Below, one piece after another: positions 11,075-54,673 of a DNA stretch of 64,000 bases (the first letter of the stretch is position 1; each line of letters opens with the position of its first letter). The notes beneath the pieces were generated by a model. The model was not told the origin of the DNA and searched no databases. It was given only the letters and a program-made list of their open reading frames with translations. This DNA is from a virus, in the IMG/VR virus record IMGVR_UViG_3300005264_000008, positions 18,229 to 82,228 of that record, one strand, 5' to 3'. A program made the position numbers and the translations under genes.

Positions 11075-11253
11075 TGATGCAACAGGCATTTATTCAAGCA
11101 TGTGATGATAATGGGAAAAATGTCAATGTCGAAAGAATTGACATAGCGTTTCAATTATGTAGTGTCTAAATTAACCATGACGAATACGTGTTTGACACTG
11201 TTATCTACTTTATTTTTAACATTTAAATTATTAACAATATAAAAAGTAATAGT

Positions 11254-11511
11254 ATGGAATATAAAACCGTAGAAAATTGGACAAGTGGTAGTGGTAATAT
11301 ATTAGTCACAAAACAGGAAGTGAAATTAGAAGCTGGTGACCAATATATAGGAGAAGGGTTGTCTGGAAGAAATATATTTTCATGGTCTAAAAATCAAAAA
11401 AAAGAATATCCACAAAAAAAAGCTATTAAAGTAATTGCTCGTAGTTTTAATTTAGTTTGGTGTTTTTCTGGTAACAATAACATTTCAGATTTACCAGTAG
11501 TAGATATTTAG
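11254..11511 (+). CDS. hypothetical protein (cassette cargo)
   Basis: Flanked by GTTATC at 11200 and GATAAC at 11517. Confidence 0.6.
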   Translation: MEYKTVENWTSGSGNILVTKQEVKLEAGDQYIGEGLSGRNIFSWSKNQKKEYPQKKAIKVIARSFNLVWCFSGNNNISDLPVVDI

Positions 11512-11515
11512 TTGC

Positions 11516-11586
11516 TGATAACGAATACGTGTTTGTGATGTTTTGGGAGTTTTTAGAACCAAATAACATCAAAAACGCTGTTATAG
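11516..11586 (+). mobile_element. attC-like site
   Basis: TGATAAC ... GTTATAG enclosing an imperfect palindrome (TGATGTT/AACATCA, TTGG/CCAA). Confidence 0.75.
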
Positions 11587-11647
11587 TTACCTTATTGAAA
11601 CATTTCAGCATCGAATAAATGAAATATTAATCTTAAAATATTGAATT

Positions 11648-11845
11648 ATGAATGGAAGAAAGTTATATAGAGAATATACACAAAGTAAGGGCAAAGAAGC
11701 AAAAGAGTTTATCAAGATTGAAGAAGACTGGTATAATTTAGACATGTTAATAACAAAAGATAATAAGGGTCATGAAGAAAAAACAAGTATTAATTATAAG
11801 GATTTAGTTAATTGGATAATCCGAAATAGGCCTGATTACTCATAA
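11648..11845 (+). CDS. hypothetical protein (cassette cargo)
   Basis: Stop codon TAA lies inside the CATAAC inverse core. Confidence 0.6.
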   Translation: MNGRKLYREYTQSKGKEAKEFIKIEEDWYNLDMLITKDNKGHEEKTSINYKDLVNWIIRNRPDYS

Positions 11846-11911
11846 CAAAACGCTTGATGTATCTTTCATATAATAATTAAATTATAAGATGTTAAAAATG
11901 TATGTAATATT
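11844..11911. repeat. conserved cassette-array end element, copy 1
   Basis: AACAAAACGCTTGATGTATCTTTCATATAATAATTAAATTATAAGATGTTAAAAATGTATGTAATATTT; near-identical copy on the minus strand at ~52985-53053. Confidence 0.85.
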
Positions 11912-11934
11912 TAATTTTCATATTAGATTTATAT

Positions 11935-11966
11935 AAAAATCCATGTTTAATAAACATGGATTTTTT
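11935..11966. terminator. intrinsic terminator
   Basis: AAAAATCCATGTTT-aat-AAACATGGATTTTT. Confidence 0.7.
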
Positions 11967-12013
11967 AATTTATTTAATTTATATAATAATAACAAAAAAA
12001 TAATAACAAAGAA

Positions 12014-13714
12014 ATGAATACAAAAAAAATTGTATATGAAAGTGATGCATTATCACAAATGAAAAAAGGAATTGATAAGGTGTATGGAGCAGTTAGTTCA
12101 ACATTAGGACCGAATGGTCATAATGTACTAATTGAAACTGAAAATGGAAAAATAATTTCAACTAAAGATGGTGTAACAGTAGCAAAATCAATAAAGTTAG
12201 AAGATAGTGTTGAAAACATGGGTGCACAATTCATAATCAACAGTTCAATTCATACAAATAAAATTGCTGGTGATGGAACAACAACTGCAACTGTATTGAC
12301 ACATTCTATTATTACAGAAGGATTAAAACGACTTGACACTAATATCAATGTGTTTGATTTAAAACGTGGCTTAGAACAAACAAAAGACGTGATTATTGAT
12401 GAACTTGATAATATGAAGAAAGATATTGTTGATGAAAATGATTATGAAAATGTTGCAACTATATCTGCAAATGGTGATGATAAAATTGGAAGACTTATTT
12501 CAGAAGCATTTAAATCAGTTGGGACAGATGGTGTAATTACTGTTGAAAAAAGTAATACTGGATTAGATGAATTGGAAATTGTGGATGGATTGCAATTTAA
12601 TAGTGGGTATTTATCACCATTGTTTATTAATAATGAACAATCATTACAAGTTGAATTTGATAATCCTCGTTATATATTTTTCGATGGTAAATTACAAACA
12701 GTTACTCAAATATTAAAATTACTTGAATATTCAGCTACTCATAATATACCACTTGTCATTGTAGCAGATGATATTAGTAATGAAGCATTGTCAATATTGA
12801 TTGTTAATAAAGTTAGAGGTATTGCAAATGTATGTGCAGTTAAAGCACCTGGATATGGTGATTTACGAAAAGAAATGTTACAAGATATGGCAACATTGAC
12901 AAATGGTATTGTTGTAAGTGCTGACCGTGGCATGGAGATTGAAAATATTACTGATGATGTGTTTAATGATGATGGAGAACTAATTCAGACTATAAATAAT
13001 GTATTTGGGACTAGCCGTTCATTCACAAGTACTAACAAACAAAGTACTATAATTGATGGGAATGGTGAATTGGAGAAAATCGAGTTGAGAATAGACCAAT
13101 TACAATCACAAATAGAAAAATCAGTATCTGATTATGAAAAACAACGTTATAGAGAACGTTTAGGTAAAATGTCAGGTGGTGTAGCAATCATAAATGTAGG
13201 TGGTGAAAGTGATGTGGAAATTGAAGATAAAAAGTTTAGAATAGAAGATGCGTTAAATGCAACTAAATCAGCTATTGAAGACGGTGTGTTACCAGGTGGA
13301 GGAATTGCATTGATGAAAATCTGGGATAAACTTGAAAATGAAACAGAATATTCAAGTGATATTCTTGAAAATGTTATCTCACGAAATATTATGTTAAAAG
13401 CAATTAAACAACCATTTATGAAAATCATCGATAATGCTGGATTGAATGGTGATGTTATTTGGAGTGAACTACATACATCGAATGATTTATTAACAGCAAT
13501 TGAAAATAAAAATAATCCAATTGAATTAAACGATGGATTCAATGTTAAAACTAAAAAATATGTTAATATGATTACAGATGGTGTCATTGACCCAACCAAA
13601 GTTGTAAAAACAGCATTACAAAAAGCAACATCACTAGCATCAACATTTTTGATGACTAATGCAATAATTGTGGATATTCCTACTGAAACAAAACCCGAAG
13701 AAATGCAATATTAA
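12014..13714 (+). CDS. groEL: chaperonin GroEL
   Basis: TLGPNG, TKDGVTVAK, AGDGTTTATVL, KAPGYGD, GVLPGGG, GVIDPTKV. Confidence 0.96.
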   Translation: MNTKKIVYESDALSQMKKGIDKVYGAVSSTLGPNGHNVLIETENGKIISTKDGVTVAKSIKLEDSVENMGAQFIINSSIHTNKIAGDGTTTATVLTHSIITEGLKRLDTNINVFDLKRGLEQTKDVIIDELDNMKKDIVDENDYENVATISANGDDKIGRLISEAFKSVGTDGVITVEKSNTGLDELEIVDGLQFNSGYLSPLFINNEQSLQVEFDNPRYIFFDGKLQTVTQILKLLEYSATHNIPLVIVADDISNEALSILIVNKVRGIANVCAVKAPGYGDLRKEMLQDMATLTNGIVVSADRGMEIENITDDVFNDDGELIQTINNVFGTSRSFTSTNKQSTIIDGNGELEKIELRIDQLQSQIEKSVSDYEKQRYRERLGKMSGGVAIINVGGESDVEIEDKKFRIEDALNATKSAIEDGVLPGGGIALMKIWDKLENETEYSSDILENVISRNIMLKAIKQPFMKIIDNAGLNGDVIWSELHTSNDLLTAIENKNNPIELNDGFNVKTKKYVNMITDGVIDPTKVVKTALQKATSLASTFLMTNAIIVDIPTETKPEEMQY

Positions 13715-13731
13715 TAAAAATATAAAAAAAA

Positions 13732-13980: not shown

Positions 13981-13982
13981 TA

Positions 13983-15257: not shown

Positions 15258-15288
15258 TAGTTATAAAAAAAGTTGTAGTTTAAATTAG

Positions 15289-15442
15289 CTATAACGGATA
15301 ACTTCTTGATTTTCATTTACAAATACTAACAATTTAATAAATTAAAAAACATCATCCAAATTCAATTAAATATTGGTAAATGAGTCTTGTCTTCTTATTA
15401 AATAGCAGAAAAAAATAAATGACTTCAAACGCAATGTTAGCA
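15289..15442 (+). mobile_element. attC-like site
   Basis: CTATAAC ... GTTAGCA with inner TCATTTA/TAAATGA arms. Confidence 0.6.
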
Positions 15443-15476
15443 ACTTTATTTATTAATAACTTTAAAATTAAAAAAA

Positions 15477-15782
15477 ATGGATATTCAAATTTTTATCGAT
15501 GAACAAGTCGAAATGTTAAACAATGATTTTGGTACAGACCAAATTCAATGGAATATATACAGACTATTTTTCAAAGAATATATGCCAGACTTACCCCTTA
15601 ATACAATAATTTCGAGATGTATGGAAGTTTATGCACAAATTATTAAAATCCATTCGGCTCAACCTTTATTTAAAGCTCTTGAAAAAGTTCAATTGCAAGT
15701 TGGTCAAATCGAACATAACTGGGATTATCAACAGAAAGAATATATGCCGTTTGTTATAAAAGCACTTACAGCTAACTTTTAA
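15477..15782 (+). CDS. hypothetical protein (cassette cargo)
   Basis: Flanked by GTTAGCAAC (15436) and its exact reverse complement GTTGCTAAC (15785). Confidence 0.7.
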   Translation: MDIQIFIDEQVEMLNNDFGTDQIQWNIYRLFFKEYMPDLPLNTIISRCMEVYAQIIKIHSAQPLFKALEKVQLQVGQIEHNWDYQQKEYMPFVIKALTANF

Positions 15783-15786
15783 TTGT

Positions 15787-15918
15787 TGCTAACGGCTAAC
15801 TTAATTGAACTGTTGCGACTTAACGCACAACGTAAATTAAAAGTAGTAAGTCCAAAAATAACACAGATGTAAATTAACAGCATAATGTAAGCCTGTGAAA
15901 TTCAAGCAAATGTTATGT
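15787..15918 (+). mobile_element. attC-like site
   Basis: TGCTAAC ... GTTATGT with TTGAA/TTCAA inner arms. Confidence 0.7.
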
Positions 15919-15935
15919 GCTTAAATTTAAAAATT

Positions 15936-16493
15936 ATGATTAAAGTATTAAATTTATACGCAGGTATTGGAGGTAATCGAAAGTTTTGGAATAACTGTAA
16001 TATCACTGCAGTAGAAAATGATAACCAAATTGCAGATAAATATAAACAGCAATTTCCAAATGATAAAATAATTATTGATGACGCTCATCAATTTTTATTG
16101 GAAAATTATAAAGAGTTTGATTTTATTTGGTCAAGCCCCCCATGCCCAACTCATTCTCGAACTAATTATTTTCTAAATCCAAAAGGAATAATTCGATACC
16201 CGGATATGAAATTATGGCAAGAAATAATCTTTTTATCTGCATTTTTTAAAGGTTATTTCGTTGTTGAAAATGTAATAAGCTATTATAAACCTATTCTTAA
16301 TCCGCAACAAATAGGAAGACATTATTTTTGGTCAAACTTCAATATCCCAAAAATAAAACAACCAACAAATGACATTGGTAGAATGAATGGGAAAAATCAA
16401 CCAGCATGTAAAAAACATAAAACTGAAAGAAATGCTGTCAATTCTGAATTAGGTTTACACATTTTTAATCAATTTTTGGAAGTTAAAAAATAA
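15936..16493 (+). CDS. short C5-cytosine DNA methyltransferase (cassette cargo)
   Basis: LNLYAGIGG, WSSPPCP.HS, VVENV; flanked by GTTATGTGC and GCACATAAC. Confidence 0.85.
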   Translation: MIKVLNLYAGIGGNRKFWNNCNITAVENDNQIADKYKQQFPNDKIIIDDAHQFLLENYKEFDFIWSSPPCPTHSRTNYFLNPKGIIRYPDMKLWQEIIFLSAFFKGYFVVENVISYYKPILNPQQIGRHYFWSNFNIPKIKQPTNDIGRMNGKNQPACKKHKTERNAVNSELGLHIFNQFLEVKK

Positions 16494-16527
16494 AACAATC
16501 CAGCTATGCTGTCGCTATTTTAGTTGC

Positions 16528-16595
16528 ACATAACGAAAATGTATTTAAACTGAAAAATCTTTTTTGATTTTTTTGTTTTAAATACAATGTTAGGA
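16528..16595 (+). mobile_element. attC-like site
   Basis: ACATAAC-gaaaa-TGTATTTAAA ... TTTAAATACA-at-GTTAGGA. Confidence 0.8.
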
Positions 16596-16682
16596 GCTTT
16601 ATTTTTAGGCTTTTATCATTGTATCGGAAAATAAATAAAAGAAACTTGAAAAAAAAATTTTTTTATTCAAAATAAGTTTTGT

Positions 16683-18170: not shown

Positions 18171-21100
18171 ATGAAAAAATATTCGCACTCCACTGTACAT
18201 GATGAAACAATGAAATATTTTGATAATGATGTATTAGCAACCGATGTATGGATGAAGAAATACGCATTGAAAGATTCCGATGATAATTATTACGAATTAA
18301 CACCTGATGACATGCATCATCGAATAGCAAGTGAACTTGCACGTGTTGAAAAAAAATATCCTAACCCTATGGGCGAAGATGAAATATTTGAATTATTAAA
18401 AGACTTTAAATATGTCATACCTGCTGGTTCTAATTTATTTGGTATTGGCAATGATAAATATTTAACAAGTCTTAGTAATTGCTTTTATATACATCATGAT
18501 AACAATGATAGTTATGGAGGGATAATGAAATTAGATGAAGAATTAGTTCACCTTTTCAAAAGAAGATGTGTCGAAGAAAATTCACATGTGATGACTTTAA
18601 ATAATGGATTATTAAGAATAAAAAATATTACTAAAGGTGATATGGTGTTATCTTATAATACTAAAACCCAAAAATCCGAATATAAAAAGGTAATTGATAA
18701 ATTTGATACTTTTGTTGATAAAGATGATAGAATAATAATAAAACTATCAAATGGAAGCCAATTAAAAACATCAAAAAAACATCCAGTTTTGACATTTTCT
18801 GAAATTGGAGAATATGTTTATAAAAATGCAGGAGATATACAAAAAGGTGATATTTGTATATCATCTTTGACTAAAAATAATTATAATGTTTATAATTTTG
18901 ATAAAAAATTATCTGATATTGCATGGTTCACAGGACATCATCTGGGAGATGGTACATGTGGTAAAAATAAGTTACGTTTTAGAATATTAGGGGATAATGA
19001 AAAATGTATTGCAGAGTATGCATCTATTTTGAATGACATAACAGGCTCAACTGCAAAATATGGGTTATCTAAAAAGAAAGGTTATTTAGTTGATGTATGG
19101 GACTATACTAATAATAAAAAATCTTTAAACGATGTATTAGTTAGATATTTGGATAACCAGCGTGGAAAAAAAACATATTCAATGTTTACTCCAAATTTTA
19201 TAAAAAATAATAATTTATGGATACCTTTCATAGCAGGTTTAATAGATGCAGATGGAACAGTAACAGCAGATGGTAGATTATCGTTAACACTAACATCAAA
19301 AACAATGATAGATGAAATAAATTCTTATCTGTTATATAATGGTATCAGTTGTCATGTGAGTGTTAAGATTGACAAACGCAATTCAAAATGGAAACCGCTT
19401 TATACATTACGATTTCATAAAGATGTTGAATTTTATTCTAATATATTAAAATATCTTATTCATGATAAAAAAAGACAACGTCTTATTGAAAATAAAATAA
19501 CGGTTCATTCGTATAAAAGATTTATAACTGAAGAAGAACATAATGAAATGTTGAATAATTATAGTTCTAAAGGATTTTATAAATATAATAGAAACAACAA
19601 AGCACCAAAAGAATTTAATATTAAACGGAAACAATTGCAAAGTGCTATTGATACTGTGAAAGGTAATAATGGATTAGGTATAAGTGCTTTAAATATACTG
19701 TTAAAACATGATATTATAAATAATGATAAGTATAATGAGATTAATCAACGTGTTTTTGTTACGAATGTAAGTATAGATAATGATAGTTCTAAATATATTG
19801 ATATTGAAGTCGATGGTAATCATAATTTTTATGCAGGTAATTTTGGCGGAATCGTAACTCATAATTGTGGAGTCGGAATTGATGTGTCATTTTTAAGACC
19901 CAAAAATTCTAAAGTTAATAATGCGGCCTTAACAACAACTGGTGCAGTGAGTTTTATGAATAGATTTAGTCATACAACTGAAGAAGTTTCTCTTTTAGGT
20001 CGTAGGGCCGCACTAATGATTACAATGGATGTTAGTCATCCTGAAATTGAAGATTTTATTTCAATAAAACAAGATTTAACAAAAGTAACAGGGGCAAATG
20101 TATCAATTAAAATAACAGATGATTTTATGTTAGCTGTTAAAGAAAATAATGAATTTGAATTGAAATTTCAAATGGCAGATAAGTCTTGGATAAGAAAAAA
20201 GGTAAACGCTAAACAGATATGGGACAAATTTATAAATGCAAGCTGGAATTCAGCCGAACCTGGATTGTTATATTGGGATAAAATAAAAAGAGAATCACCT
20301 TCCGATGGTTACGAAGGGTTTGATTTACAGGGGGTTAATCCATGTTCTGAATTAACGCTATCAGATTCAGAGAGTTGTAGATTAACATCTATTAATTTAA
20401 CTGCTTTTGTTAAAAATAGTTTCACTGAAAAAAGTATGTTTGATTTTGAACAATTCAAAAATGTAGCGATTAAAGCTCAGAGATTGATGGACGATATAAC
20501 TGATTTAGAAATAGAAAAAATAAATTCGATTTTACAAAAAATTGAACAAGACCCTGAGAATGCCGATGTGAAATTTAGAGAAATTTCCTTATGGAAAAAA
20601 ATATTAGATAAAGCAACTGATGGTAGACGTTCAGGATTAGGTATAACTGGATTGGCTGACATGTTAGCAATGCTCGGATATACATATGGAACACACGAAG
20701 CAACTTCATTTTCAGAAAAAATATTTATAGATTTAGCAAAATCGTCATATGAATCTTCAATAAACATGGCTAAAGAAAGAGGAGCTTTTAAAAATTGGTC
20801 AATTGATAAAGATAAAAAAAGTGATTTTATAAATAGATTATTATATGAAACCATAGACTCAGACGTTTTTGAATTATATAAAAAATATGGTCGTAGAAAT
20901 ATCGCAAATTTAACAATTGCACCAAATGGGTCATTGAGTTTATTGAGTAAAACATCATCAGGTGTTGAACCTGTTTTCATGGTTAAACATAAAAGACGAA
21001 GAAGAGCAACAGAAACAGATTCAGTTGATTTCATTGATGATGTTGGTAATAAATGGAAAGAATATCTTGTATTTCATCCTAAGTTCGAAGAATGGTTTAA

Positions 21101-21911
21101 TAAAAATAATACTAATAAAAAACTAAAAGATTTAACAGAAAGTGAAATAGATGATATTATAACAAAATCTCCATACTATAATGCAACAGCACAAACGATA
21201 GATTACATAGAAAAAATTAGGATGCAAGGAATCATTAATAAATGGATAGACCATAGCATTTCAATGACTGTTAATTTACCAAATAATATAACCAAAAAAC
21301 AAGTGTCAGATTTATATATGAAAGGTTGGGAATATGGTTTAAAAGGAATGACTATTTATAGAGATGGTTCACGTTCGGGTGTATTAGTTGCAACTGATTC
21401 TAAAAAAGAAGTAACACCAGATAGACCAAAAGAAATACCATGTGATATACATTATATTCAAGCAAATAAGATAAAATATTATGTTATAGTTGGTTTAGTT
21501 AATGACAAACCATATGAAATATTTGCATTTGAAAAGAAACATATTTCAATACCGCAAATTAGAAAAGATGGTAAATTAATAAAAGTTAAATCAGGTATGT
21601 ATAATTTAAAATATAATGGTACTGAAATTGAAAATATTGCTCAACATTTTCAATCACCACAAGAAGATGGTTTTACTCGAATGGTATCATTATTATTAAG
21701 ACGTGGAAATTCAGTAGCAGATATAACAGAACAAATTGATAAATCATATAGTGCTATATCAGGATTTTATAAAGCAATTTCACGAGTATTACGTAAAAAT
21801 TATACTTCAGATGGTAAAATAGACGAAAAATGTCCGCAATGTAATGCTAATTTAGTAATGAAAGAAGGATGTAAATCATGTCCTGCATGTGGATTTGAAT
21901 TTTGTGGTTAA
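18171..21911 (+). CDS. nrdJ: class II (B12-dependent) ribonucleotide reductase with intein
   Basis: SLSNCF, GRRAALM, NPCSE, SCRL, TIAPNG, SSGVEP, YRDGSR; C-terminal Zn ribbon CPQC...CPACG. Confidence 0.92.
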   Translation: MKKYSHSTVHDETMKYFDNDVLATDVWMKKYALKDSDDNYYELTPDDMHHRIASELARVEKKYPNPMGEDEIFELLKDFKYVIPAGSNLFGIGNDKYLTSLSNCFYIHHDNNDSYGGIMKLDEELVHLFKRRCVEENSHVMTLNNGLLRIKNITKGDMVLSYNTKTQKSEYKKVIDKFDTFVDKDDRIIIKLSNGSQLKTSKKHPVLTFSEIGEYVYKNAGDIQKGDICISSLTKNNYNVYNFDKKLSDIAWFTGHHLGDGTCGKNKLRFRILGDNEKCIAEYASILNDITGSTAKYGLSKKKGYLVDVWDYTNNKKSLNDVLVRYLDNQRGKKTYSMFTPNFIKNNNLWIPFIAGLIDADGTVTADGRLSLTLTSKTMIDEINSYLLYNGISCHVSVKIDKRNSKWKPLYTLRFHKDVEFYSNILKYLIHDKKRQRLIENKITVHSYKRFITEEEHNEMLNNYSSKGFYKYNRNNKAPKEFNIKRKQLQSAIDTVKGNNGLGISALNILLKHDIINNDKYNEINQRVFVTNVSIDNDSSKYIDIEVDGNHNFYAGNFGGIVTHNCGVGIDVSFLRPKNSKVNNAALTTTGAVSFMNRFSHTTEEVSLLGRRAALMITMDVSHPEIEDFISIKQDLTKVTGANVSIKITDDFMLAVKENNEFELKFQMADKSWIRKKVNAKQIWDKFINASWNSAEPGLLYWDKIKRESPSDGYEGFDLQGVNPCSELTLSDSESCRLTSINLTAFVKNSFTEKSMFDFEQFKNVAIKAQRLMDDITDLEIEKINSILQKIEQDPENADVKFREISLWKKILDKATDGRRSGLGITGLADMLAMLGYTYGTHEATSFSEKIFIDLAKSSYESSINMAKERGAFKNWSIDKDKKSDFINRLLYETIDSDVFELYKKYGRRNIANLTIAPNGSLSLLSKTSSGVEPVFMVKHKRRRRATETDSVDFIDDVGNKWKEYLVFHPKFEEWFNKNNTNKKLKDLTESEIDDIITKSPYYNATAQTIDYIEKIRMQGIINKWIDHSISMTVNLPNNITKKQVSDLYMKGWEYGLKGMTIYRDGSRSGVLVATDSKKEVTPDRPKEIPCDIHYIQANKIKYYVIVGLVNDKPYEIFAFEKKHISIPQIRKDGKLIKVKSGMYNLKYNGTEIENIAQHFQSPQEDGFTRMVSLLLRRGNSVADITEQIDKSYSAISGFYKAISRVLRKNYTSDGKIDEKCPQCNANLVMKEGCKSCPACGFEFCG
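18567..19865 (+). mobile_element. intein with LAGLIDADG homing endonuclease (433 aa)
   Basis: Starts CVEENSHV, block B TSKKHP, GHHLGDG and FIAGLIDADG, ends VTHN followed by Cys. Confidence 0.93.
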
Positions 21912-22999: not shown

Positions 23000-23263
23000 A
23001 TGGACAATGTAATATCAATTAATTTTAACATATCTAAATTTAATATAACAAATATTGAATGTGATGATATAACACCAATATCTACCACAATTGGCATACC
23101 AATTGGACATGCAATTATTAGTAATACAAATGATGAGTATAATATTGTTATTGTGTTGACTGAAAGATATTTTTTCAATGATTTTAGATTCATTGGTGAA
23201 TTATTTTCAAAAAATGATAAACATATATTCAAAATAAATGAAATACGACTTATATGCAAATAA
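23000..23263 (+). CDS. hypothetical protein
   Basis: 87-aa ORF in operon. Confidence 0.5.
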   Translation: MDNVISINFNISKFNITNIECDDITPISTTIGIPIGHAIISNTNDEYNIVIVLTERYFFNDFRFIGELFSKNDKHIFKINEIRLICK

Positions 23264-24477
23264 ATACATTATATAATGAAAATTGTTTAGTTACAATGAA
23301 GAGAATGGATGATAACTCAATTGATTCTATTGTGACTGACCCACCATATGGGATACGATTTATGAATAAAAAATGGGATTATGACATACCATCTGTTGAT
23401 ATATGGAAAGAATGTTTACGAGTATTAAAACCATGTGGACATTTATTATCATTCGCAGGAACTCGTACACAGCATCGAATGGTAACTAATATTGAAGATG
23501 CTGGATTTGAAATTAGAGATATGATTGCATATGTCTACGCAAGTGGATTTCCAAAGTCACTTAATATTAGTAAGGCAATTGATAAACAACTCGGTGCGAA
23601 ACGAAAGGTAGTTGGGGTAGCAGGCAAATCAGGGTCAAAACGAAATTGTATGATGTCAGACTTTAAAGGTGGTACATATATGACTACATTACCATCTACA
23701 GATGAAGCAATTCAGTTTGAGAAGTTTGGTACAGCTCTTAAACCGTCATTAGAACCAATTACACTTGCACGAAAACCGTTATCGGAACAAACAATAGCAA
23801 GTAATGTTTTAAAATGGGGTACAGGTGGAATTAATATTGATGGGTGTCGTGTTCCATATACAAAAGACAATCCACCAATTCCACAGTTAGCACAAAATAA
23901 GATAAATGTAGATAGTAAAAAAACAATGTATGATGGTCAATCATTTAATAAATCAGTAACAAAGGCAATTATAGGTGGTTCTTTGGATGGTAGATTTCCA
24001 GCTAATTTAATTCATGATGGTAGTGATGAAGTAAAAAATATGTTTCCTGACACTAAAAGTGGTAAAGTAATAAATGATAAAACAGCATATAATAATAGTA
24101 AATCTAATACTAGTTTTATAAAGGGAGAAACAAATCAATTTAATCAATATGGTGATAACGGCAATGCTTCACGCTTTTTTTATTGTGCAAAACCATCTAA
24201 AAAAGAACGTGGTAAAAATAATACGCATCCAACTGTAAAACCAATTGCATTAATGAAATATTTGGTCACATTAGTAACACCTCCAAATGGTATTGTTTAT
24301 GACCCATTTATGGGAAGTGGTTCTACTTTAATTGCATGTAAATTATTAGATTTTGATTATATCGGGAGTGAATTGGATAAAAGTTCATGTGACATTGCAA
24401 ATGAACGGCTAATATCAAATGAAGATATAATAAAAAAAGAAAAAGAAGATAAAATAAATAATCTATTTAATTTTTAA
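23254..24477 (+). CDS. N6A/N4C DNA methyltransferase (beta class)
   Basis: TDPPY, GFPKS, GRFPAN, HPTVKP, DPFMGSGST. Confidence 0.92.
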   Translation: MQINTLYNENCLVTMKRMDDNSIDSIVTDPPYGIRFMNKKWDYDIPSVDIWKECLRVLKPCGHLLSFAGTRTQHRMVTNIEDAGFEIRDMIAYVYASGFPKSLNISKAIDKQLGAKRKVVGVAGKSGSKRNCMMSDFKGGTYMTTLPSTDEAIQFEKFGTALKPSLEPITLARKPLSEQTIASNVLKWGTGGINIDGCRVPYTKDNPPIPQLAQNKINVDSKKTMYDGQSFNKSVTKAIIGGSLDGRFPANLIHDGSDEVKNMFPDTKSGKVINDKTAYNNSKSNTSFIKGETNQFNQYGDNGNASRFFYCAKPSKKERGKNNTHPTVKPIALMKYLVTLVTPPNGIVYDPFMGSGSTLIACKLLDFDYIGSELDKSSCDIANERLISNEDIIKKEKEDKINNLFNF

Positions 24478-27063: not shown

Positions 27064-27082
27064 TTTTGTTTATTTTTAATAG

Positions 27083-27145
27083 TTATAGTGCAAATATAAT
27101 CTATATAATTTAATATAAAAATAATAATTGTTAAAAAATGTTAAA
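27083..27145 (-). promoter_or_regulatory. early/host-sigma promoter, repeated at 56452-56515
   Basis: Minus strand TTTAACA x2 ... TATATTTGCACTATA (TAnnTTTG). Confidence 0.7.
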
Positions 27146-27198
27146 ATGTCACACAAAAACATCAAAGACACACACTATGTGTTTTATTATGGTTAATT

Positions 27199-27657: not shown

Positions 27658-28434
27658 CTAATGAGAATCAGTAACCCGACATTCAGACAACTTACAATAT
27701 TCTTCTGAAATGTCCATTCCGATAAATCTTCTTTTATTTAATTTTGCCGATTTTAAAACTGTTCCACTTCCACACATTGGGTCTAAAATTATATCATTTT
27801 CATTTGACCAACTTAATATGTGGTCGGTTGCTAAATCGAATGGAAAAGGAGCAGGATGTTTTTTCGACTCATGGTCAATTTTTTTCTTACCAACAACATA
27901 AGACCATATATTCCCTTTTATCTTTTGTTTCTTTACTTGAGTTGCTTTCTTTTTTCTTGTTTGCTTTCCTTTTGAAAAGTTTTTATATGTAGTTCCTTTT
28001 AGTTCTAACCCGGCATGAATACAATCTATTTTAATAGGATTATGAGTTTTAATTTTACCTTTTGAAAAAACAAACATATATTCAAATACATTATTGTATC
28101 TTTGTCTGTAAATTTGTGGAATTGGATTAGTTTTCTGAAATATCATTGTATCATGTAGATTAAATCCTATTTCTTTGAAATATAACGCTTGTTTAAAACT
28201 TGTACCTGTTTCACTTCTGTTTATCGTAGCATCAGCAACAACCCAAACCACAACACCACCAGTTTTTGTAACTCTATACAATTCACGTGCAATCAATTCA
28301 AACGGAAAGGAAAATCCATTATAATTTCGTAAATTATCATAAGGCGGTGAAGTAACTGTTAAATCAATACTATTGTCAGATAATAATTTTAAACCGTCCT
28401 GAGCAGGTTTATTGTAAATTATATTAGTTTTCAT
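27658..28434 (-). CDS. N4C/N6A DNA methyltransferase (beta class)
   Basis: TSPPY, HPAPFP, DPMCGSGT. Confidence 0.92.
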   Translation of the reverse strand: MKTNIIYNKPAQDGLKLLSDNSIDLTVTSPPYDNLRNYNGFSFPFELIARELYRVTKTGGVVVWVVADATINRSETGTSFKQALYFKEIGFNLHDTMIFQKTNPIPQIYRQRYNNVFEYMFVFSKGKIKTHNPIKIDCIHAGLELKGTTYKNFSKGKQTRKKKATQVKKQKIKGNIWSYVVGKKKIDHESKKHPAPFPFDLATDHILSWSNENDIILDPMCGSGTVLKSAKLNKRRFIGMDISEEYCKLSECRVTDSH

Positions 28435-33649: not shown

Positions 33650-33668
33650 TAAAATAAAATAAAATAAA

Positions 33669-33980: not shown

Positions 33981-33988
33981 ATAATAAA

Positions 33989-36483: not shown

Positions 36484-36504
36484 CAAACAAATAAACTAAA
36501 TAAC

Positions 36505-36750
36505 ATGAAATTAACAAAAAAAGAATTAACAAAAATCATTTCAGAAGTAATAGACAATCATATCAATGAAGATTATGGATGGGATATTAAACGTGGTAAA
36601 GAACAGGATGCACTTGAAGATGCAATTGAAATGTTTGGTGAAAAATCAATATTACAACAATTAGTACAAGCAATGGGTACAAGTGCATTATCTGATAATC
36701 TTTCTTATATTTTTAGAATGAATGATTATGAATCACCATATTTAAAATAA
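36505..36750 (+). CDS. leader-family protein
   Basis: MKLTKKELTKIISEVIDNHINE. Confidence 0.7.
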   Translation: MKLTKKELTKIISEVIDNHINEDYGWDIKRGKEQDALEDAIEMFGEKSILQQLVQAMGTSALSDNLSYIFRMNDYESPYLK

Positions 36751-44769: not shown

Positions 44770-45633
44770 TTATTTCTTTAATTTTCGCTTGATACTATAT
44801 CTATTATCACTTATTTTTATCCATGTACCTTTAATTGGGCTATCTCCACTTGGTTTCCATTTGAAATGTAGTATTCTATCAACAATACTATCTTGTTTTT
44901 CAGCATTTTGTTTATATGTCGAAATCGCATTATCTAACCTTTCGGTATATGCGAAAATAACTTCTTCACCAACACCTCTGCCTTCCGTTTCTTCACGATA
45001 CCTATCTCTTACAATACACAATTCAGGGTCAATTTCTAAATAAATTATAGTGTTATTATAATCATTATCATGTAATTTTTGTAAACGTGCCAGTAAAGTA
45101 TCAGGACTAGCACCAACTGTATCAATTACTAGTATATTACCTGCTTTTTTAATTTTGGTATTAAACAATTGTTTATCAATTTCTTTTGCCAAAGAACGAA
45201 TATCAAAATATGTTGCATAATATGGTTTATAAAAATCCATCCAAAATTTTTTAAATCCATTATTTTTATTTTCATTCCACCAATCAAGTGTGATTGGATG
45301 TATTATTTGGGTTTTTCTATTACTAACATAAGATGATTTAGATTTAAATACTGATATTACTTTTTGTAAATTTTTTTTCGTATTATGTAAATTTGATGAT
45401 AGTGTTTTGTAATGATTTTGTGCAGTAATATACTGTAATGCTTTTACTTGACTATCACTGTTAGATACTTTATAACCTTTAAATCCGTGAATGTATTTGT
45501 TTATTTCTTTATTTATAAATGTACTTTTTCCAGAAGCAGGTAATCCAGTTATAACAACTGTACGTTTCCCTAAGTCTTCTAAGAATTCAGTAACTAGTTG
45601 TTCTATTAATATTTTTAAATTTGTTTGTTTCAT
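44770..45633 (-). CDS. P-loop kinase (zeta-toxin/AAA_33-like) with leader
   Basis: ITGLPASGKS, SNSD, LVIDTVG, lid R..R....R. Confidence 0.7.
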   Translation of the reverse strand: MKQTNLKILIEQLVTEFLEDLGKRTVVITGLPASGKSTFINKEINKYIHGFKGYKVSNSDSQVKALQYITAQNHYKTLSSNLHNTKKNLQKVISVFKSKSSYVSNRKTQIIHPITLDWWNENKNNGFKKFWMDFYKPYYATYFDIRSLAKEIDKQLFNTKIKKAGNILVIDTVGASPDTLLARLQKLHDNDYNNTIIYLEIDPELCIVRDRYREETEGRGVGEEVIFAYTERLDNAISTYKQNAEKQDSIVDRILHFKWKPSGDSPIKGTWIKISDNRYSIKRKLKK

Positions 45634-48302: not shown

Positions 48303-48519
48303 GAATTATGTATTAATTCATCTAAACTTTCACATTTAAAAGAAGATTATAATTTCAATTCAGACAAGAAATACGTTGTGATTATCGATTGCACATGACA
48401 TGTATATATTGGAATTGGATTTGTGTGGCATGAAAAATATAATTATCAATACAATATTATACACTCTTTTATTTTTAGTGTCGTAAATTATTTTATATTA
48501 ACCTTAAATTCATCGAATT

Positions 48520-49014: not shown

Positions 49015-49180
49015 CATTGTACAACGAATACGTGTTTGAATACATTTTTTTAACCGATATCAGTTGATAATTAGTAAAAAAGTCAATTAAAATTATTATA
49101 AACCATCTGTGAATTGTTACGCATGGTATGTATGGGAAAAAAGATATACTGGCGACACTATTGTTCGCTGGTTTAATTAA

Positions 49181-49266
49181 CCATAACGTTGAGTAGTGGC
49201 GACTAAACGCAAAGATAGATAATGGTACTAACGATGCCGAGCCATTATTTATATACAGTGTTAGGC
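49181..49266 (+). mobile_element. attC-like site
   Basis: CCATAAC...AGTAGTGGC/GCCATTATT...GTTAGGC. Confidence 0.65.
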
Positions 49267-49285
49267 ATCTTTAAATTTTTACAGA

Positions 49286-49495: not shown

Positions 49496-49499
49496 TTGT

Positions 49500-49567
49500 G
49501 CCTAACAAAAATGTATTAAATTATGTTTTCGTTTTCCACAAAAATTAATATTAATACAATGTTATGA
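49500..49567 (+). mobile_element. attC-like site
   Basis: GCCTAAC-aaaaa-TGTATTAA ... TTAATACA-at-GTTATGA. Confidence 0.8.
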
Positions 49568-49612
49568 ATTTCCATTTCATTGCATTAATTGTAAATCTTA
49601 AAATATATTATT

Positions 49613-49822: not shown

Positions 49823-49899
49823 CATTTTATAAGATGTTGAAAATGTATGTAATATTTAATTTATTTAATTTATATAATAATAACAAAAAATAATAAAAA

Positions 49900-50223
49900 A
49901 TGGAATACAAACCAATCGACAACAAAGTTGTATTAAAACAACTAAAAAAACAAAAAAAGGCATCAGGAATAATTGTACCAGACTTAGGTCAAAATAAAAC
50001 AATTGAAGTAGAAGTTCTATCAATCGGACCAGGTTTGCCGATGTTTAATAATACATCTGAGCTACTGACTTCAAATAAAGTACAAAAACGATATCCAATG
50101 CAAATAAAAGTAGGTGATATTGTTGTAATACCTAAATATGGATTACATGAGTATGATGAAAATGGTAAAAAGTATTTTATCGGTAAAGAAAGTGATATAT
50201 TATTTATAAAAACAGAAGTATAA
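49900..50223 (+). CDS. groES: co-chaperonin GroES
   Basis: KPIDNKVV, ASGIIVPD, VLSIGPG, KVGD.V...KY, ESDIL. Confidence 0.9.
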   Translation: MEYKPIDNKVVLKQLKKQKKASGIIVPDLGQNKTIEVEVLSIGPGLPMFNNTSELLTSNKVQKRYPMQIKVGDIVVIPKYGLHEYDENGKKYFIGKESDILFIKTEV

Positions 50224-50615
50224 ATAATTTATTGTCTATAACGGAGCGATAACTAAAATGTTAATGTCTTGATTGTTTTAAATAATATGTTATACACTTT
50301 ATTTTCAATCATATAGTAATAACAAATAAATTAAATTAACACGCTCATTTTAACGGATATGCAGAGTTGCACATAAAACGAATATGTATATGAGTCTGTT
50401 TTAATGGCTTATATACATTATTGTAAGTAATTAGATTAACAAAACATCATGGAAATATTATTGATTTATCGGTTACTTCTGGGATGTTTTGGTATTTTCA
50501 TCAAAATTGATTACAATAAATATTAGGTGTATTTTTTTTCATTCTCACAATCAAGTACTTAGTATTTTTTTTTCATTTTATTGTAAATTTATTTGTTTAT
50601 GTGAATTATATATTT

Positions 50616-50631
50616 TATATTTGCACTATAA
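50616..50631 (+). promoter_or_regulatory. Bacteroidota-type promoter element
   Basis: TATATTTGCACTATAA, same core as the 27083 and 56452 copies. Confidence 0.65.
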
Positions 50632-50648
50632 CTAATAAAAAAAATATC

Positions 50649-51258: not shown

Positions 51259-51290
51259 TAAAAAAGACATCAAATTGGTGTCTTTTTTTT
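51259..51290. terminator. bidirectional terminator
   Basis: AAAAAGACATCAA..TTGGTGTCTTTTT. Confidence 0.65.
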
Positions 51291-52920
51291 ATTCACTAGT
51301 ACCCCTGAAATGTTTTTTTGTACTAGATGGGCTATAATTATCAATTACATCAAACCCTAAACTTATATTAACAACCATTGGAATTTCCTTTATAATATCC
51401 CACGGATACTCATCATCAATTGTATATGATAGTGATGTCATTATAACTGGTAGACCTTCACTTACATTATTTGCAAACCACATACCAATTTTTAATGATA
51501 TAATCTGACCTGACATTTGACCTGAATCACTTATCTTTGGACTTTGAAGTTGTACTAGTTTATCTAATTTAGTATACACTGTTTCTATTTCATGGACACT
51601 AAATAATGGCACTAATAAATTAAATGATAATGCTCGTTTTGTTCCTTCATACGTATAAACATCATCAGGCCGACCAATGTACTTAGTAGGTGACCAAGAT
51701 GGGCTAAATGTATCAGAAAGTCCACTTATAAATGCTCTAAACTGAATACCTGCTATTTTGAGATGTATTAAATCATTACTATTATTACTTCCCATGTTTA
51801 TTTCATCTGTTCCACTTACATGTGTCCCTTCATTTGGGTATGAATTATCTGCAGTTCCTAAACGTTTTGACATATTCCAATTCTGATAATAACTATTATT
51901 ATCATTGAAATTAAATTTGTCTTTATATCCAGTAATATCTTTAAAATAATCTTTTGTTTTACTGTTTAATTCAGTATCAAAATTATTATATTTTTTTGAA
52001 TATGGGCTGTTATCAGTTTGAAATTCTTTGTATGATTGATATGTATTGTAATTATCTAATAAGTCAATTGACATTCCATTATAACCAGTTGCAAATCCTG
52101 GTTGTAATCTTTTTCCATATAGTTCATTTTGTAATTTTGTCAATCCACTTGAATTATTTGTTTTATCAATTGTATTATTATATGGATTATTTGGATTGTA
52201 ACTACTATTTAATGTAATTGGTATTCCACTTACAGATTTTCGTATAACAGTACTACCGATTCCATAAAATGAATTAGGACCACCCACACCTGTTAATTCG
52301 GTGTTAATAGTTTCTTCGAATCGTTCATTTATATTTTTCAATGTTTTTATTAACTTACTATTTTGCATATCATCTGTTAATAAACTAAGAATCCTTTCAA
52401 ATGATGATGATTGTAGTGTGTTTTCGTCATTTGTTAAACCAAAATTATTTAACATTTTAATAAGTCGGTTTCCTGTCTTATATGTCTCAGTTGTATTTAG
52501 TTTGTTATAGAATTTTTCATATTCTACTTCATGGTGCATTGACCCATAATTATCGATATGAAATCCTCCTTGTGGTATATTCATTGAAAATTTAATTGGG
52601 TTGAATATGTTAATTGGGTCTATTCCATCATAACCTCGTTTTGGGTTCATTAAATGTAACCCTTCTTGTTTTAATATCCATAGATTACCTTTTGGGCTGG
52701 ATAAAAAATCAGTAATTCGTTTCGTGTCATCTAATGCATGCTTCATATAATCTCTACCACCATATATAAAATCAATATTATTATAATGTGAATAATTACT
52801 AGAATCAATCTCAGTTGGAATGTTTTGTTTTAATATATTATTAGTAATTATATTAGGGCTTTGTGTATTTTTATCTGATACTGTGAAAAATGCTTCTAAA
52901 TTTGTATTGATATTTAACAT
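51289..52920 (-). CDS. baseplate/tail-tube initiator-like structural protein
   Basis: C-terminal QFRAFI.GLSD.F...W....YIGR...Y.Y....R..SF tube-like domain. Confidence 0.6.
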   Translation of the reverse strand: MLNINTNLEAFFTVSDKNTQSPNIITNNILKQNIPTEIDSSNYSHYNNIDFIYGGRDYMKHALDDTKRITDFLSSPKGNLWILKQEGLHLMNPKRGYDGIDPINIFNPIKFSMNIPQGGFHIDNYGSMHHEVEYEKFYNKLNTTETYKTGNRLIKMLNNFGLTNDENTLQSSSFERILSLLTDDMQNSKLIKTLKNINERFEETINTELTGVGGPNSFYGIGSTVIRKSVSGIPITLNSSYNPNNPYNNTIDKTNNSSGLTKLQNELYGKRLQPGFATGYNGMSIDLLDNYNTYQSYKEFQTDNSPYSKKYNNFDTELNSKTKDYFKDITGYKDKFNFNDNNSYYQNWNMSKRLGTADNSYPNEGTHVSGTDEINMGSNNSNDLIHLKIAGIQFRAFISGLSDTFSPSWSPTKYIGRPDDVYTYEGTKRALSFNLLVPLFSVHEIETVYTKLDKLVQLQSPKISDSGQMSGQIISLKIGMWFANNVSEGLPVIMTSLSYTIDDEYPWDIIKEIPMVVNISLGFDVIDNYSPSSTKKHFRGTSE

Positions 52921-52984
52921 ATACTATTGTTTTAAATAAATAGTTTATAATAACAATAAGACAACAAATTAATACTTCCATTAT

Positions 52985-53053
52985 AAATATTACATACATT
53001 TTTAACATCTTATAATTTAATTATTATATAAAAGATACACCAAGCGTTTTGTT
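52985..53053 (-). repeat. conserved cassette-array end element, copy 2
   Basis: Reverse complement of 11844-11911 with about 2 substitutions. Confidence 0.85.
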
Positions 53054-53074
53054 AAGGTTAATAAAAACCAGCGA

Positions 53075-53653
53075 CTAACTTTCGGATATAAATTCTAATA
53101 CTAATCCATTTATAGTTGGTATTATTTCTTTTGAGATTTGCTTTAAAAACATCTCTCTTTTTTTATGCGAAATATCTGTAATTTGGATATAATCATCAAT
53201 AATAACACAACTAAAATTCTGACTTAAAACTTTAATAGCATCTTTTAATATTTTAGTTTTACCAAAATCACCAATTTTATTAGGATTGTAACCTTTAATT
53301 AGACGTGCTATTCTTGCAGTTGTTATTTGAATTTCGTCATCAGGATAGTCATCTTTATAATCATCATCAATGTTAATCCCAATTGTTCTACCTTGTGTTT
53401 TTCGCAAAACTAAACGACTTTCACAATGTAATGATTGTCCATTTTCTTTGCCCCAATTAATAAAATAGAAAATTTCCGTTAATTCTTTTTCAGAATACGG
53501 TTTCTCTATTATTTTCAAATAATCTTTACTCTTCTTATACATGCCAATATCAGTAGAGCAATATTCTTCGTGGTCTTTGAAAATTGCAGTTACCTTTCCT
53601 TTTATTTTTGGAAAATTAATATCGGATACTAAATCATTTATTTTAAATTTCAT
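53075..53653 (-). CDS. hypothetical protein (cassette cargo)
   Basis: Minus strand: GTTAAAGTT upstream and AACCTTAAC downstream. Confidence 0.65.
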   Translation of the reverse strand: MKFKINDLVSDINFPKIKGKVTAIFKDHEEYCSTDIGMYKKSKDYLKIIEKPYSEKELTEIFYFINWGKENGQSLHCESRLVLRKTQGRTIGINIDDDYKDDYPDDEIQITTARIARLIKGYNPNKIGDFGKTKILKDAIKVLSQNFSCVIIDDYIQITDISHKKREMFLKQISKEIIPTINGLVLEFISES

Positions 53654-53703
53654 AATTAATATATTTATTAGATTATTTACTTGTAAATGAAAATATTAAA
53701 AAA

Positions 53704-53839
53704 CTTTAACATTTTATTGGTTTTCATTTACTTTTTTTCGTTGTGTAAATAGCAACTTTTATCTTGACTTTTAACGGTTTACCATTGATTTACATTGTGC
53801 TGAAAAAAGCAAATGAAAACCAATAAGTTAGACGTTATG
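53704..53839 (-). mobile_element. attC-like site
   Basis: Minus strand ACATAAC...TTATTGGTTTTCATTT / AAATGAAAACCAATAA...GTTAAAG; 16-bp perfect arms. Confidence 0.8.
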
Positions 53840-54019
53840 TTTCACCATTTGAACTATACAATTTTCTTAATCGTAAAGTTTTAAAATAATAATAACAAGA
53901 AATTTTAAATAGACGAGAACTATACCTACCAGATAAATGACTTGATATAGTCCCCTATTCAATTTCAAACGCACTTGCAAGCATTGTTATATTAATATTA
54001 TACAAGTGCATTGATTCTT

Positions 54020-54319
54020 TTATTTATTGTTATCATAAATTTTTTTTAAGCGTAAAACATCAGACTCATTCAACAGAAATAAATCACATAATTCTGTTGA
54101 TGGAAAATGGTTTTTATATGATTGGAAAACCACTATATCCTTAATAGCTTGCATTTTATTTACATCCAAAAGATTAAACCATTTTCTTTTTTCTAATTCT
54201 GAAAATGTTTTTTTAACTAAATCGTCAGGCATTGCATCTTCGCCTAAGCGAACGCAATATTTAGAAACTGAGCTTATTATTGTTCGTAAGCTTTTAATTT
54301 CAATATCTGATAAAGTCAT
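54020..54319 (-). CDS. hypothetical protein (cassette-like)
   Basis: Followed on the minus strand by ATATAAC-AATGCTTGC at ~53975-53992. Confidence 0.55.
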   Translation of the reverse strand: MTLSDIEIKSLRTIISSVSKYCVRLGEDAMPDDLVKKTFSELEKRKWFNLLDVNKMQAIKDIVVFQSYKNHFPSTELCDLFLLNESDVLRLKKIYDNNK

Positions 54320-54673
54320 AATTTTTAGATTAAATGATTGTTAATTACTTGCAATATACGAACTTTATTTTAAATATGCAAACTTTATGCTATTTATTTT
54401 GAAATTTTTAGTGTAAGTAGAAAATTCAAAACTCACATTTCCGTTTCCAAATAAATATATTTTATTCATGTCTCTAATTGTATTTTGATATATTTTAGGA
54501 ACTAGTTTGCGAAATAACTTTATTATCATCACCGATAAAATCATCAATCTCAGATGGAATATCTTCTTTGAATATTTCCATCAATAATTTCATTTCAGGA
54601 AACACATCATCAGGTAATACTTCCAAATCCATCATTTCCCATTTATTTTTGTCTATATGTTTCATATGCTTGA

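Follow-up and report, generated by a model that had tools for sequence, protein, structure and literature searches.

Integron-like gene cassettes dispersed over several islands of a large phage genome

Cassette islands and their cores

The stretch of DNA studied here (the window) comprises 64,000 nucleotides (nt) of the IMG/VR virus record IMGVR_UViG_3300005264_000008 (positions 18,229 to 82,228) and carries four to five accessory islands of small open reading frames (ORFs) and hairpins (Table 1). The original prediction, made from the letters of the window, held that these islands have the layout of integron cassettes. All core strings named in it are indeed in place, and the four to five islands consist of small ORFs with GTTA and five nt upstream and the reverse complement of these, five nt and TAAC, at the stop. 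The order within a unit is the stop of the ORF, five variable bases and TAAC, 5-7 unpaired bases, an imperfect stem-loop, 1-3 bases, and TGTTA with five variable bases; the motif C TTTATTT usually follows the GTTA core and precedes the next ORF. The five bases that follow GTTA have their complement not on the TAAC side of their own hairpin but on the TAAC side beyond the next ORF. Half-cores that flank one cassette are complementary and half-cores of one hairpin are not, in the window, in other phage contigs and in true integron arrays; such a pattern is the mark that crossover within the conserved GTT would leave.

The cores are GTTAGCAAC (15436) and GTTGCTAAC (15785), GTTATGTGC (15912) and GCACATAAC (16526), GTTAGGCA (49260) and TGCCTAAC (49499), GTTATC (11200) and GATAAC (11517) and, on the minus strand, GTTAAAGTT (53702-53710) and AACCTTAAC (53051-53059). 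All five variable bases match in the pairs 15436/15785 and 15912/16526, four in 49260/49498 and 53710/53059 (minus strand), three in 11200/11514, two in 11580/11838 and at most one in 49560/49815. The predicted match within each cassette was thus borne out for most pairs, but the minus-strand pair carries one mismatch and two cassettes match poorly; similarly, GTTATC/GATAAC is present as a pair, but it consists of mere 6-mers, of which the window has 15 and 17 copies. A direct-repeat search revealed no family of conserved direct repeats around the cassette ORFs. Each island contains 2-3 sites within 1.5 kb, and the cargo is made up mostly of ORFans and one C5 DNA methyltransferase, which fits counter-defence accessory genes.

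GTTA upstream and TAAC at or after the stop were found for 25 of the 104 crude genes of the contig. A match of five out of five variable bases was observed for two of these 104 genes against 0.19 expected from mismatched gene pairs (P 0.016), and a match of at least four for five genes against 1.9 expected (P 0.044), one of the five (61740-61931) lying outside the islands. The original prediction had staked itself on core complementarity not being equally common around core genes, and around the other genes of the contig it is rare. Taken by itself this contig is suggestive, short of proof; the replicates in other phage contigs are decisive.

Folding of the hairpins

The quality of a fold was expressed as the z of its folding energy versus shuffled sequences. 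The palindromes that had been described between cassettes proved real in part: the hairpins at 11514-11588, 16526-16597 and 53702-53842 (minus strand) beat the shuffles (z from -3.15 to -4.68; Table 1) and that at 49498-49569 is weak, but the junctions 15785-15920 and 15300-15440 of island 2 do not stand out. In the hairpin at 11514-11588 the spacers are 6/1: TAAC is followed by 5-6 unpaired nt, and 1 nt stands ahead of GTTA.

We used two covariance models. The first (R1) was built from eight short hairpins, three of which are sites in the window, and it gave 12 further matches in the window at E<=1 (the three training sites and two antisense matches to them excluded); seven of the 12 lie inside the islands, which make up about 8% of the window. 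The second (R2) was built from 16 attC sites beside integron integrase (IntI) genes in Bacteroidota, as a stand-in for the IntegronFinder attC model or HattCI. R2 matched the window at 16526-16597 (19.4 bits, E 0.028) and, within the remnant stretch, at 50234-50297 (15 bits, E 0.34). Both matches are on the minus strand, and the other sites obtained no score. Of about nine sites in the window this host-built model reached only one, a warning that such sites may be undercounted in standard integron surveys.

The same cassettes in other phage contigs

Other contigs were reached by pattern scans and with R1; they are IMG/VR contigs and one 4.8-kb contig binned in a Bacteroidales metagenome-assembled genome, and all of them display the same cassette-specific core chain. 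For instance, one contig (L168) holds two cassettes with exact 9-nt pairs (GTTAGGGGC/GCCCCTAAC and GTTATGCCT/AGGCATAAC), exact 9-nt pairs occur in L171 (GTTATAGGC/GCCTATAAC), in L177 (GTTAGTTGC/GCAACTAAC, 1.8 kb apart) and in L197, L199, L201, L203, L204, L205 and L207, and the gp35 cassette of Polaribacter phage P12002L has the 9-nt core pair GTTAGGCAC/GTGCCTAAC. A scan of IMG/VR for exact copies of a 15-nt repeat found in the islands (at 11180, 11521 and 49024) yielded 79 single matches, mostly chance, two of which were useful (L055 and L065). In an automated count five of five variable bases matched in 8 of 26 phage cassettes and four of five in 3 of 26, versus 1.1% and 4.0% of 650 mismatched pairs; the positive control, true integron arrays, gave five of five in 22 of 40. 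The caller was crude in that it missed the window's own cassettes, paired two false sites of a tRNA region there and mis-set some borders elsewhere, and the counts are therefore conservative and drawn from loci other than the window.

A further replicate is a methyltransferase module. With the C5 methyltransferase of the window as bait we obtained 80 loci, in only two of which R1 found matches, showing that this model is narrow. Flanks were scored in 36 of the 80 loci: six have the GTTATAAGC 9-mer pair, one a 10-mer, two a 6-mer only and 27 none. A module of ~730 bp bounded by GTTATAAGC and GCTTATAAC is present in L196, L199, L203, L204, L205 and L207, with variants in L197 and L201. Across these eight contigs the mean pairwise identity is 0.9-0.97 inside the module and 0.2-0.45 within 20 nt outside both cores, and the drop lies exactly at TGTTATAAGC and GCTTATAAC. 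That homology between related phage loci should end at the cores was one of the checks proposed for the prediction, and in these eight contigs it does; homology that ends exactly at both cores supports exchange at the cores. The closest methyltransferase homologues (10 loci inspected), which served as a negative control, lie in tight operons and have no cores or hairpins. For the 101-aa ORF of island 2, a 92% relative on a 1,170-bp contig appears, from read-through at the N-terminus of the protein, to have kept the upstream core while the sequence that precedes it is different. A bacterial integron cassette with GTTATAAGC/GCTTATAAC cores (L276) was considered as a copy of the phage module and rejected: no BLAST match exists between the two, so the sharing of cores is coincidental.

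The G+C content of the 64-kb window is 25%, and the layout could in principle be a chance product of an A+T-rich genome full of short GTT/AAC words and weak palindromes. The common 6-mer pair at 11200/11517, the two junctions that fold no better than shuffles and the in-contig P values of only 0.016 and 0.044 would agree with this, but the layout was replicated in at least 10 other contigs and the R1 matches are enriched in the islands. The 8 of 26 cassettes with full matches against 1.1% expected and the sharp breakpoints at the cores of the methyltransferase module contradict the chance explanation, which we find hardly credible.

The hairpins could alternatively be regulatory cassettes combining a terminator and a promoter, shuffled by homologous recombination as described for the PeSL cassettes of T4-type phages, with core complementarity incidental. 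According to the available text of the two reports on PeSL (Arbiol et al. 2010, PMC2839356; Comeau et al. 2014, PMC4122927), these cassettes have conserved direct repeats, recombine homologously, and, like the units described here, feature small accessory ORFs in hyperplastic islands of a large myovirus, bounded by stem-loops and exchanged as modules. The hairpins of the window do lie between co-oriented genes, and a T-rich motif (C TTTATTT) comes after the majority of GTTA cores, TGTTANNNNCTTTATTT being found 32 times (<=2 mismatches) against 18.8 expected. PeSL exchange needs direct repeats, however, whereas the flanks found here are inverted, specific to the unit and only 9 nt long, the hairpin sequences vary between sites, and the breakpoints lie on cores of 4-9 nt, too short for homologous exchange. 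The same architecture moreover adjoins integron integrases in bacteria. Exchange of the PeSL type is thus an improbable explanation.

Host integrons and the polarity of the phage arrays

Of 301 sampled Bacteroidota genomes, 90 had a match above the curated cut-off of TIGR02249, the NCBIfam integron integrase model; the 14 control genomes had none. The share in Bacteroidota (G024-G323) was higher than we anticipated. For eight of the integron integrase genes we examined the 8 kb on the attI side. Four host loci of low G+C (L275-L278) contain long arrays in which the attC sites are near-uniform and read 5 nt-TAAC, 1-2 nt, a stem that has one extra base, loop, stem, 5-6 nt, GTTA-5 nt, and these arrays carry a cassette-specific 9-nt chain like that of the phage units. 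The extended complementary core is hence a property of true integron cassettes of Bacteroidota that the phage units have in common with them. The build of the phage hairpins (core, spacer, stem, loop, stem, spacer, core) is likewise the architecture of attC beside Bacteroidota integron integrases.

The orientation is where the two differ. In the host arrays the short spacer (1-2 nt) follows TAAC and the long one (5-6 nt) precedes GTTA in 21 of 21 scorable sites, and the ORFs lie on the canonical strand, ahead of their attC, in 37 of 37 cassettes. In the phages, when the sites are read along the ORFs, it is the long spacer (5-7 nt) that follows TAAC and the short one (1-3 nt) that precedes GTTA in 31 of 32 scorable sites; the lone exception is a site of P12002L whose lowest-energy fold pairs differently. 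All five phage matches of R2 are on the strand opposite the ORFs (16526-16597 and 50234-50297 in the window, and L201, L171 and L203). The R2 alignment at 16526-16597 recovers both spacers, the short one and the long one with its final TC, as well as an extra base in the 5' arm; this is the one site where the extra base aligns with the extrahelical base of the host sites. From the spacer asymmetry and the R2 matches, the phage cassettes appear to be mirror images of those of the hosts, with the gene antisense in canonical terms and the hairpin ahead of its gene in the sense of transcription. Read from attI, the gene of a phage cassette therefore does not stand ahead of its attC as in integrons.

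In three islands the TAAC of the last ORF is joined to a ~70-nt non-palindromic element and no hairpin is found there. The element precedes GroEL, a 543-aa ORF and GroES (a partial copy); the copies were compared by eye. Two copies (11847-11915 and 52985-53050) show no fold (z 0.16-0.55), and the exact 23-nt core of the element has no match in any other IMG/VR record. The far ends of islands 1 and 3 are both CATGAC. Read in the canonical attC sense, the genes of the phage arrays run backwards and each array begins at the ~70-nt element. The element would then occupy the canonical place of attI with the newest cassette adjoining it, which makes it a candidate attI; equally, it may be a shared regulatory region of the genes that follow, into which cassettes were inserted.

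Integron-type arrays without an integrase

A cluster of attC sites lacking integrases (CALIN) consists of at least two attC sites close together with no integron integrase nearby. The islands have their 2-3 sites within 1.5 kb each, and the tyrosine recombinase family PF00589 has no match in the 82-kb record. We therefore read the islands as integron-type cassette arrays of the CALIN type, with no integrase in view, in a large myovirus-like phage, and give this reading a probability of about 0.78. The predicted layout is upheld by the breakpoints at the cores, the rarity of the complementarity elsewhere and the same chain beside IntI, and corrected as to polarity.

The remark in the original prediction that no integrase is visible also stands, PF00589 having no match on the whole contig (39% complete), and Pfam scans of ~50 window ORFs found no recombinase family of any kind. 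The combination of intI and attI beside an array, which makes a complete integron, was not found on the contig. PF00589 was equally without a match in four other hairpin-bearing records (with the 82-kb contig, G000-G004) and in G005-G013, which include eight records with the methyltransferase module, three of them 100% complete (68, 37.7 and 34.8 kb). A mechanism of the IS200/IS605 type or another HUH mechanism was set aside, as no such gene turned up, although no search was aimed at that family. The absence of a recombinase from complete array-bearing genomes implies that the enzyme must act in trans, at least there. The simplest candidate is the integron integrase of the host, which is favoured by the matching site architecture, by the frequency of IntI in the phylum and by the reported recombination of phage attC sites by IntI1 (Qi et al. 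2023).

Under this reading a cassette would leave as a circle, its two half-sites pairing to complete the base of the hairpin, and would enter again when a tyrosine recombinase exchanges strands on folded single-stranded DNA, at G|TT beside the long spacer. The ~70-nt element would be the docking site (attI-like), and the enzyme would be supplied in trans, most likely as a host integron integrase and otherwise as a recombinase encoded in the unsequenced 60% of the genome or by a co-infecting phage.

Several observations count against integron-type arrays of this kind. No recombinase was found, either on the 82-kb contig or in the complete array-bearing phage genomes G006, G007, G011 and P12002L (PF00589, no match). 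The in-contig statistics are modest. Core matches are poor in two of the seven window cassettes (2/5 and at most 1/5), and in island 2, the best one, both long junctions fold no better than shuffles. With E<0.05 over the entire window, R2 reaches only a single site. None of 150 other sampled Bacteroidota genomes (32 candidates scored per genome) yielded the phage hairpin family (R1), and of two pattern scans run over all species genomes the first had no match and the second four, one of them real; a pool of the same sites in the hosts is thus unsupported. Classical integron cassettes retain their own attC, and yet the hairpins flanking the methyltransferase module differ among contigs on both sides, which one crossover per site does not predict; the upstream hairpin is visibly common only to L203 and L205. 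Exchange at both cores, if either strand can fold and be cut, would explain the differing hairpins around the module, and would also explain the lasting complementarity of the half-cores of a gene, whichever hairpin leaves along with it. Finally, no clean excision joint was found in the contigs of the source metagenome. Logan contigs aligned at 80% likeness were noisy, with joints that have sides of 21-35 nt and lie off the cassette borders. Logan contigs of the source run end at 15408-15437 and 15819-15889, and a 182-nt contig of run X3 matches 15824-15915 and is unlike beyond; these are hints and no evidence of excision.

Alternatively, the arrays could be a phage-lineage system with its own short Xer-like tyrosine recombinase, rather than a bacterial integrase, the gene having been lost or lying in the unsequenced part. 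The absence of the phage hairpin family from the 150 genomes, the polarity that is mirrored with respect to host cassettes and the role of both cores as breakpoints, unlike in classical integrons, all agree with such a system. On the other hand, no array-bearing record has a tyrosine recombinase beside the array (no PF00589 match in G000-G004, G005-G013 and P12002L), hairpins are missing around the only short recombinase seen in a phage record (267 aa, G022), the site architecture equals that of host attC, and IntI1 has been reported to recombine attC of the P12002L CALIN (PMC9892861, available text). We consider a recombinase of the phages' own unlikely.

Along with the CALIN-type reading, a more specific picture can be entertained, if only tentatively. 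In it the phages would possess a mirror-image integron of their own, in which cassettes with the folding site first circulate among integrase-less phages, both cores are crossover points, and genes and hairpins reassort separately; three docking elements would stand before the chaperonin genes and one unknown gene, and captured genes would be read through into GroEL/GroES.

Relation to known systems

Integrase-less attC clusters in phages have already been published, and the kind is thus known. In 10,705 phage genomes Qi, Rajabal, Ghaly, Tetu and Gillings (2023, Front Microbiol 14:1091391, PMC9892861) found, as the available text of the report has it, three complete integrons, one In0 and 17 CALINs. 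In the virulent Polaribacter phage P12002L the CALIN carries methyltransferase cassettes, and IntI1 is reported to have recombined five of six phage attC sites, taken from P12002L and two other phages and including one from the P12002L array. The same text describes the arrays of Tetrasphaera phage TJE1 and Pseudoalteromonas phage PH101 as being in typical bacterial orientation and the attC directions of P12002L as divergent. To judge from these published parts, the arrays described here resemble the phage CALINs in having rows of single-ORF cassettes, attC-type hairpins, virulent-type phages, no integrase and DNA methyltransferases as cargo; P12002L is moreover a phage of Bacteroidota (Polaribacter), and its gp35 has the same kind of 9-nt core pair. 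They differ in that one large genome contains four to five separate arrays, of which three end at the shared ~70-nt element, and in that the polarity of the hairpins is reversed with respect to the genes in 31 of 32 sites. The best R1 match in P12002L lies between two adjacent methyltransferases (gp35 and gp36) of its published CALIN, and is a candidate for the published site.

Compared with the sedentary chromosomal integrons of Bacteroidota (L275-L278), the phage arrays are alike in their TAAC/GTTA cores, the 9-nt chain, the unequal spacers and the single small ORF per cassette. In the host the attC sites are near-uniform, follow the ORF and lie beside intI, whereas the phage hairpins are diverse, precede the ORF and come without an integrase. 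The pdif modules of Acinetobacter plasmids also have inversely oriented recombinase sites, and their neighbours reassort at both ends, as is the case for the methyltransferase module; those sites are, however, double-stranded XerC/XerD sites, with no hairpins or unit-specific complementarity. The literature searched yielded no account of arrays that are reversed or spread over several loci in jumbo phages or phages of Bacteroidota (subscription journals were thinly covered). New here are the reversed polarity, the several arrays that each end at a shared ~70-nt element and the hairpin family, which was not found in the bacteria sampled.

Integrons are usually viewed as bacterial gene-capture devices, and one paper showed a handful of attC clusters in phages. 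The present results suggest that attC-type cassette exchange is a regular route by which some phages of Bacteroidota-type hosts swap small accessory genes. The exchanged genes include DNA methyltransferases, which may blunt host restriction. Such phages would manage this with no integrase of their own and with cassettes in which the usual order is reversed. Should the mirrored orientation and the common end element be borne out, the choice of strand and orientation in integron recombination becomes testable by recombination assays, and so does the question which enzyme the phages borrow.

Further hairpins in phage contigs

P12002L has further attC-like hairpins (L174) at 38036-38089, 38880-38935 and 32224-32280, all on the minus strand. 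They lie around the gp54 methyltransferase and a Mom-like gene, outside the two-methyltransferase stretch, and have cores that match in eight of nine positions (GTTACCTAT/GTAGGTAAC). A shared loop, GGTCGTTTTAATGCC, was seen in three hairpins of unrelated contigs with different flanking genes (L196, 118-164; L205, 1425-1471; L174, 30009-30055, minus strand) and constitutes a conserved hairpin subfamily. In two hairpins (L203, 138-258; L065, 7119-7183, minus strand) the two cores of the individual hairpin complement each other at every position (9/9), as is expected for a site across which no cassette has been exchanged.

Genome context

The parent record is a linear IMG/VR contig of 82,228 bp with a CheckV completeness of 39%, and the runs that hold this DNA are marine sediment metagenomes, all of one study. 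The gene content of the window includes a tail sheath, a T4-type large terminase, DnaB, a type II topoisomerase subunit, an SNF2 helicase and an SbcCD-like pair, together with GroEL (12014-13714), GroES (49900-50223, PF00166), a CCA-adding enzyme and seven tRNAs. Five DNA methyltransferases are present, four N6/N4 and one C5, and only the C5 enzyme is cassette-borne. An identical copy of the 101-aa cassette protein (15477-15782) was found on a 235,805-bp contig, on account of which the genome is probably jumbo-sized; we take the phage to be, probably, a large, myovirus-like one with a genome of that class. With GroEL as bait, IMG/VR and the JGI metagenomes gave only relatives of ~40% identity and no close kin of the phage.

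As regards individual island genes, the 543-aa ORF (51289-52920, minus strand) has no Pfam, PHROG or PDB match, the 192-aa ORF used as bait has no viral relative, and the 164-aa ORF has a single viral relative (46% identity, L279), which lies in an operon without cores or hairpins.

Table 1. Features of the islands and other regions of the window (positions in the 64,000-nt stretch; z, fold quality; E, expectation value)
Feature	Position	Strand	Cores or bounds	Remarks
Island 1, far-end remnant	11176-11208	+	core GTTATCTAC (11200-11208)	CATGAC, 15-nt repeat, mini-palindrome; R1 15.3 bits, E 1
Cassette ORF, 85 aa	11254-11511	+	GTTATCTAC/GCTGATAAC, 7/9	no Pfam or PHROG family
attC-like hairpin	11514-11588	+	TAAC/GTTA paired at base	-11.5 kcal/mol, z -3.26; R1 training member
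Cassette ORF, 65 aa	11648-11845	+	GTTATAGTT/ACTCATAAC, 6/9	stop within ACTCATAAC (11838-11846); no Pfam or PHROG family
~70-nt element, copy 1	11847-11915	+		abuts TAAC directly; upstream of GroEL; z 0.55
Island 2, junction	15287-15444	+	AGCTATAAC, TGTTAGCAAC	z -0.16 (15300-15440), no better than shuffles
Cassette ORF, 101 aa	15477-15782	+	GTTAGCAAC/GTTGCTAAC, 9/9
Island 2, junction	15785-15920	+	GTTGCTAAC, TGTTATGTGC	z -0.05
Cassette ORF, C5 cytosine DNA methyltransferase, 185 aa	15936-16493	+	GTTATGTGC/GCACATAAC, 9/9	PF00145, E 1.1e-10
attC-like hairpin	16526-16597	+		z -3.15; R2 19.4 bits on minus strand, E 0.028 over window
Island 3, far end, weak degenerate hairpin	48391-48464	+		starts CATGAC; R1 20.1 bits, E 0.08; z 0.43, not significant
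ORF, 164 aa	48520-49014	+		no Pfam or PHROG family
Long junction	49019-49268	+	TGTTAGGCA at end	ACAAC and 15-nt repeat at start
Cassette ORF, 69 aa	49286-49495	+	GTTAGGCAT/GTGCCTAAC, 8/9
attC-like hairpin	49498-49569	+		R1 training member; z -1.14 (top strand), -1.98 (bottom strand)
Cassette ORF, 69 aa	49613-49822	+	unmatched, at most 1/5 variable bases	phrog_29434 (function unknown), E 1.9e-9
~70-nt element, partial copy 3	49824-49860	+		abuts TAAC; upstream of GroES
Gene-less core/hairpin remnants	50230-50440	+	second copy of AGTTGCACATAA end	R1 matches 50245-50297, 50371-50428
~70-nt element, copy 2	52985-53050	-		abuts TAAC; upstream of 543-aa ORF; z 0.16
Cassette ORF, 192 aa	53075-53653	-	GTTAAAGTT/AACCTTAAC, 8/9	no Pfam or PHROG family
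attC-like hairpin, 141 nt	53702-53842	-	AAACATAAC, TGTTAAAGTT	-22.5 kcal/mol, z -4.68; 0/200 shuffles equal; spacers 7/3
Island 5, far end, ORF, 99 aa	54020-54319	-		no Pfam or PHROG family
DNA methyltransferase regions	5167-6953, 23254-24477, 27658-28434(-), 15936-16493			last is C5
N-terminal leader repeats	33644-33734, 33964-34054, 36480-36570, 61152-61242, 61916-62006

Some minor features of the window may be mentioned as well. An identical A+T-rich stretch of 30 nt (family D10) lies just upstream of the GroEL and GroES starts, 38 kb apart (11966-11995 and 49857-49886), and is probably a common promoter or leader. The motif TTATATTTGCACTATAAC recurs ahead of genes at 27070-27147 (minus strand), 50600-50640 (plus strand) and 56439-56516 (minus strand) and twice more in the 18 kb preceding the window; in several intergenic regions it resembles what we take to be the Bacteroidota-type -7 promoter element TAnnTTTG, which hints at a Bacteroidota host. 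The ribonucleotide reductase ORF (18171-21911) encodes 1246 aa, and its phage relatives match ~64-67% of the length in 2-3 pieces, suggesting an intein or other insert. The ORF at 44770-45633 (minus strand) has weak Pfam matches of the zeta-toxin/AAA kinase-like type (E 4.8e-7), and at least five ORFs have a near-identical N-terminal leader (MK.TKKQLTEII...; repeat families D1-D3) with the rest of the proteins unlike.

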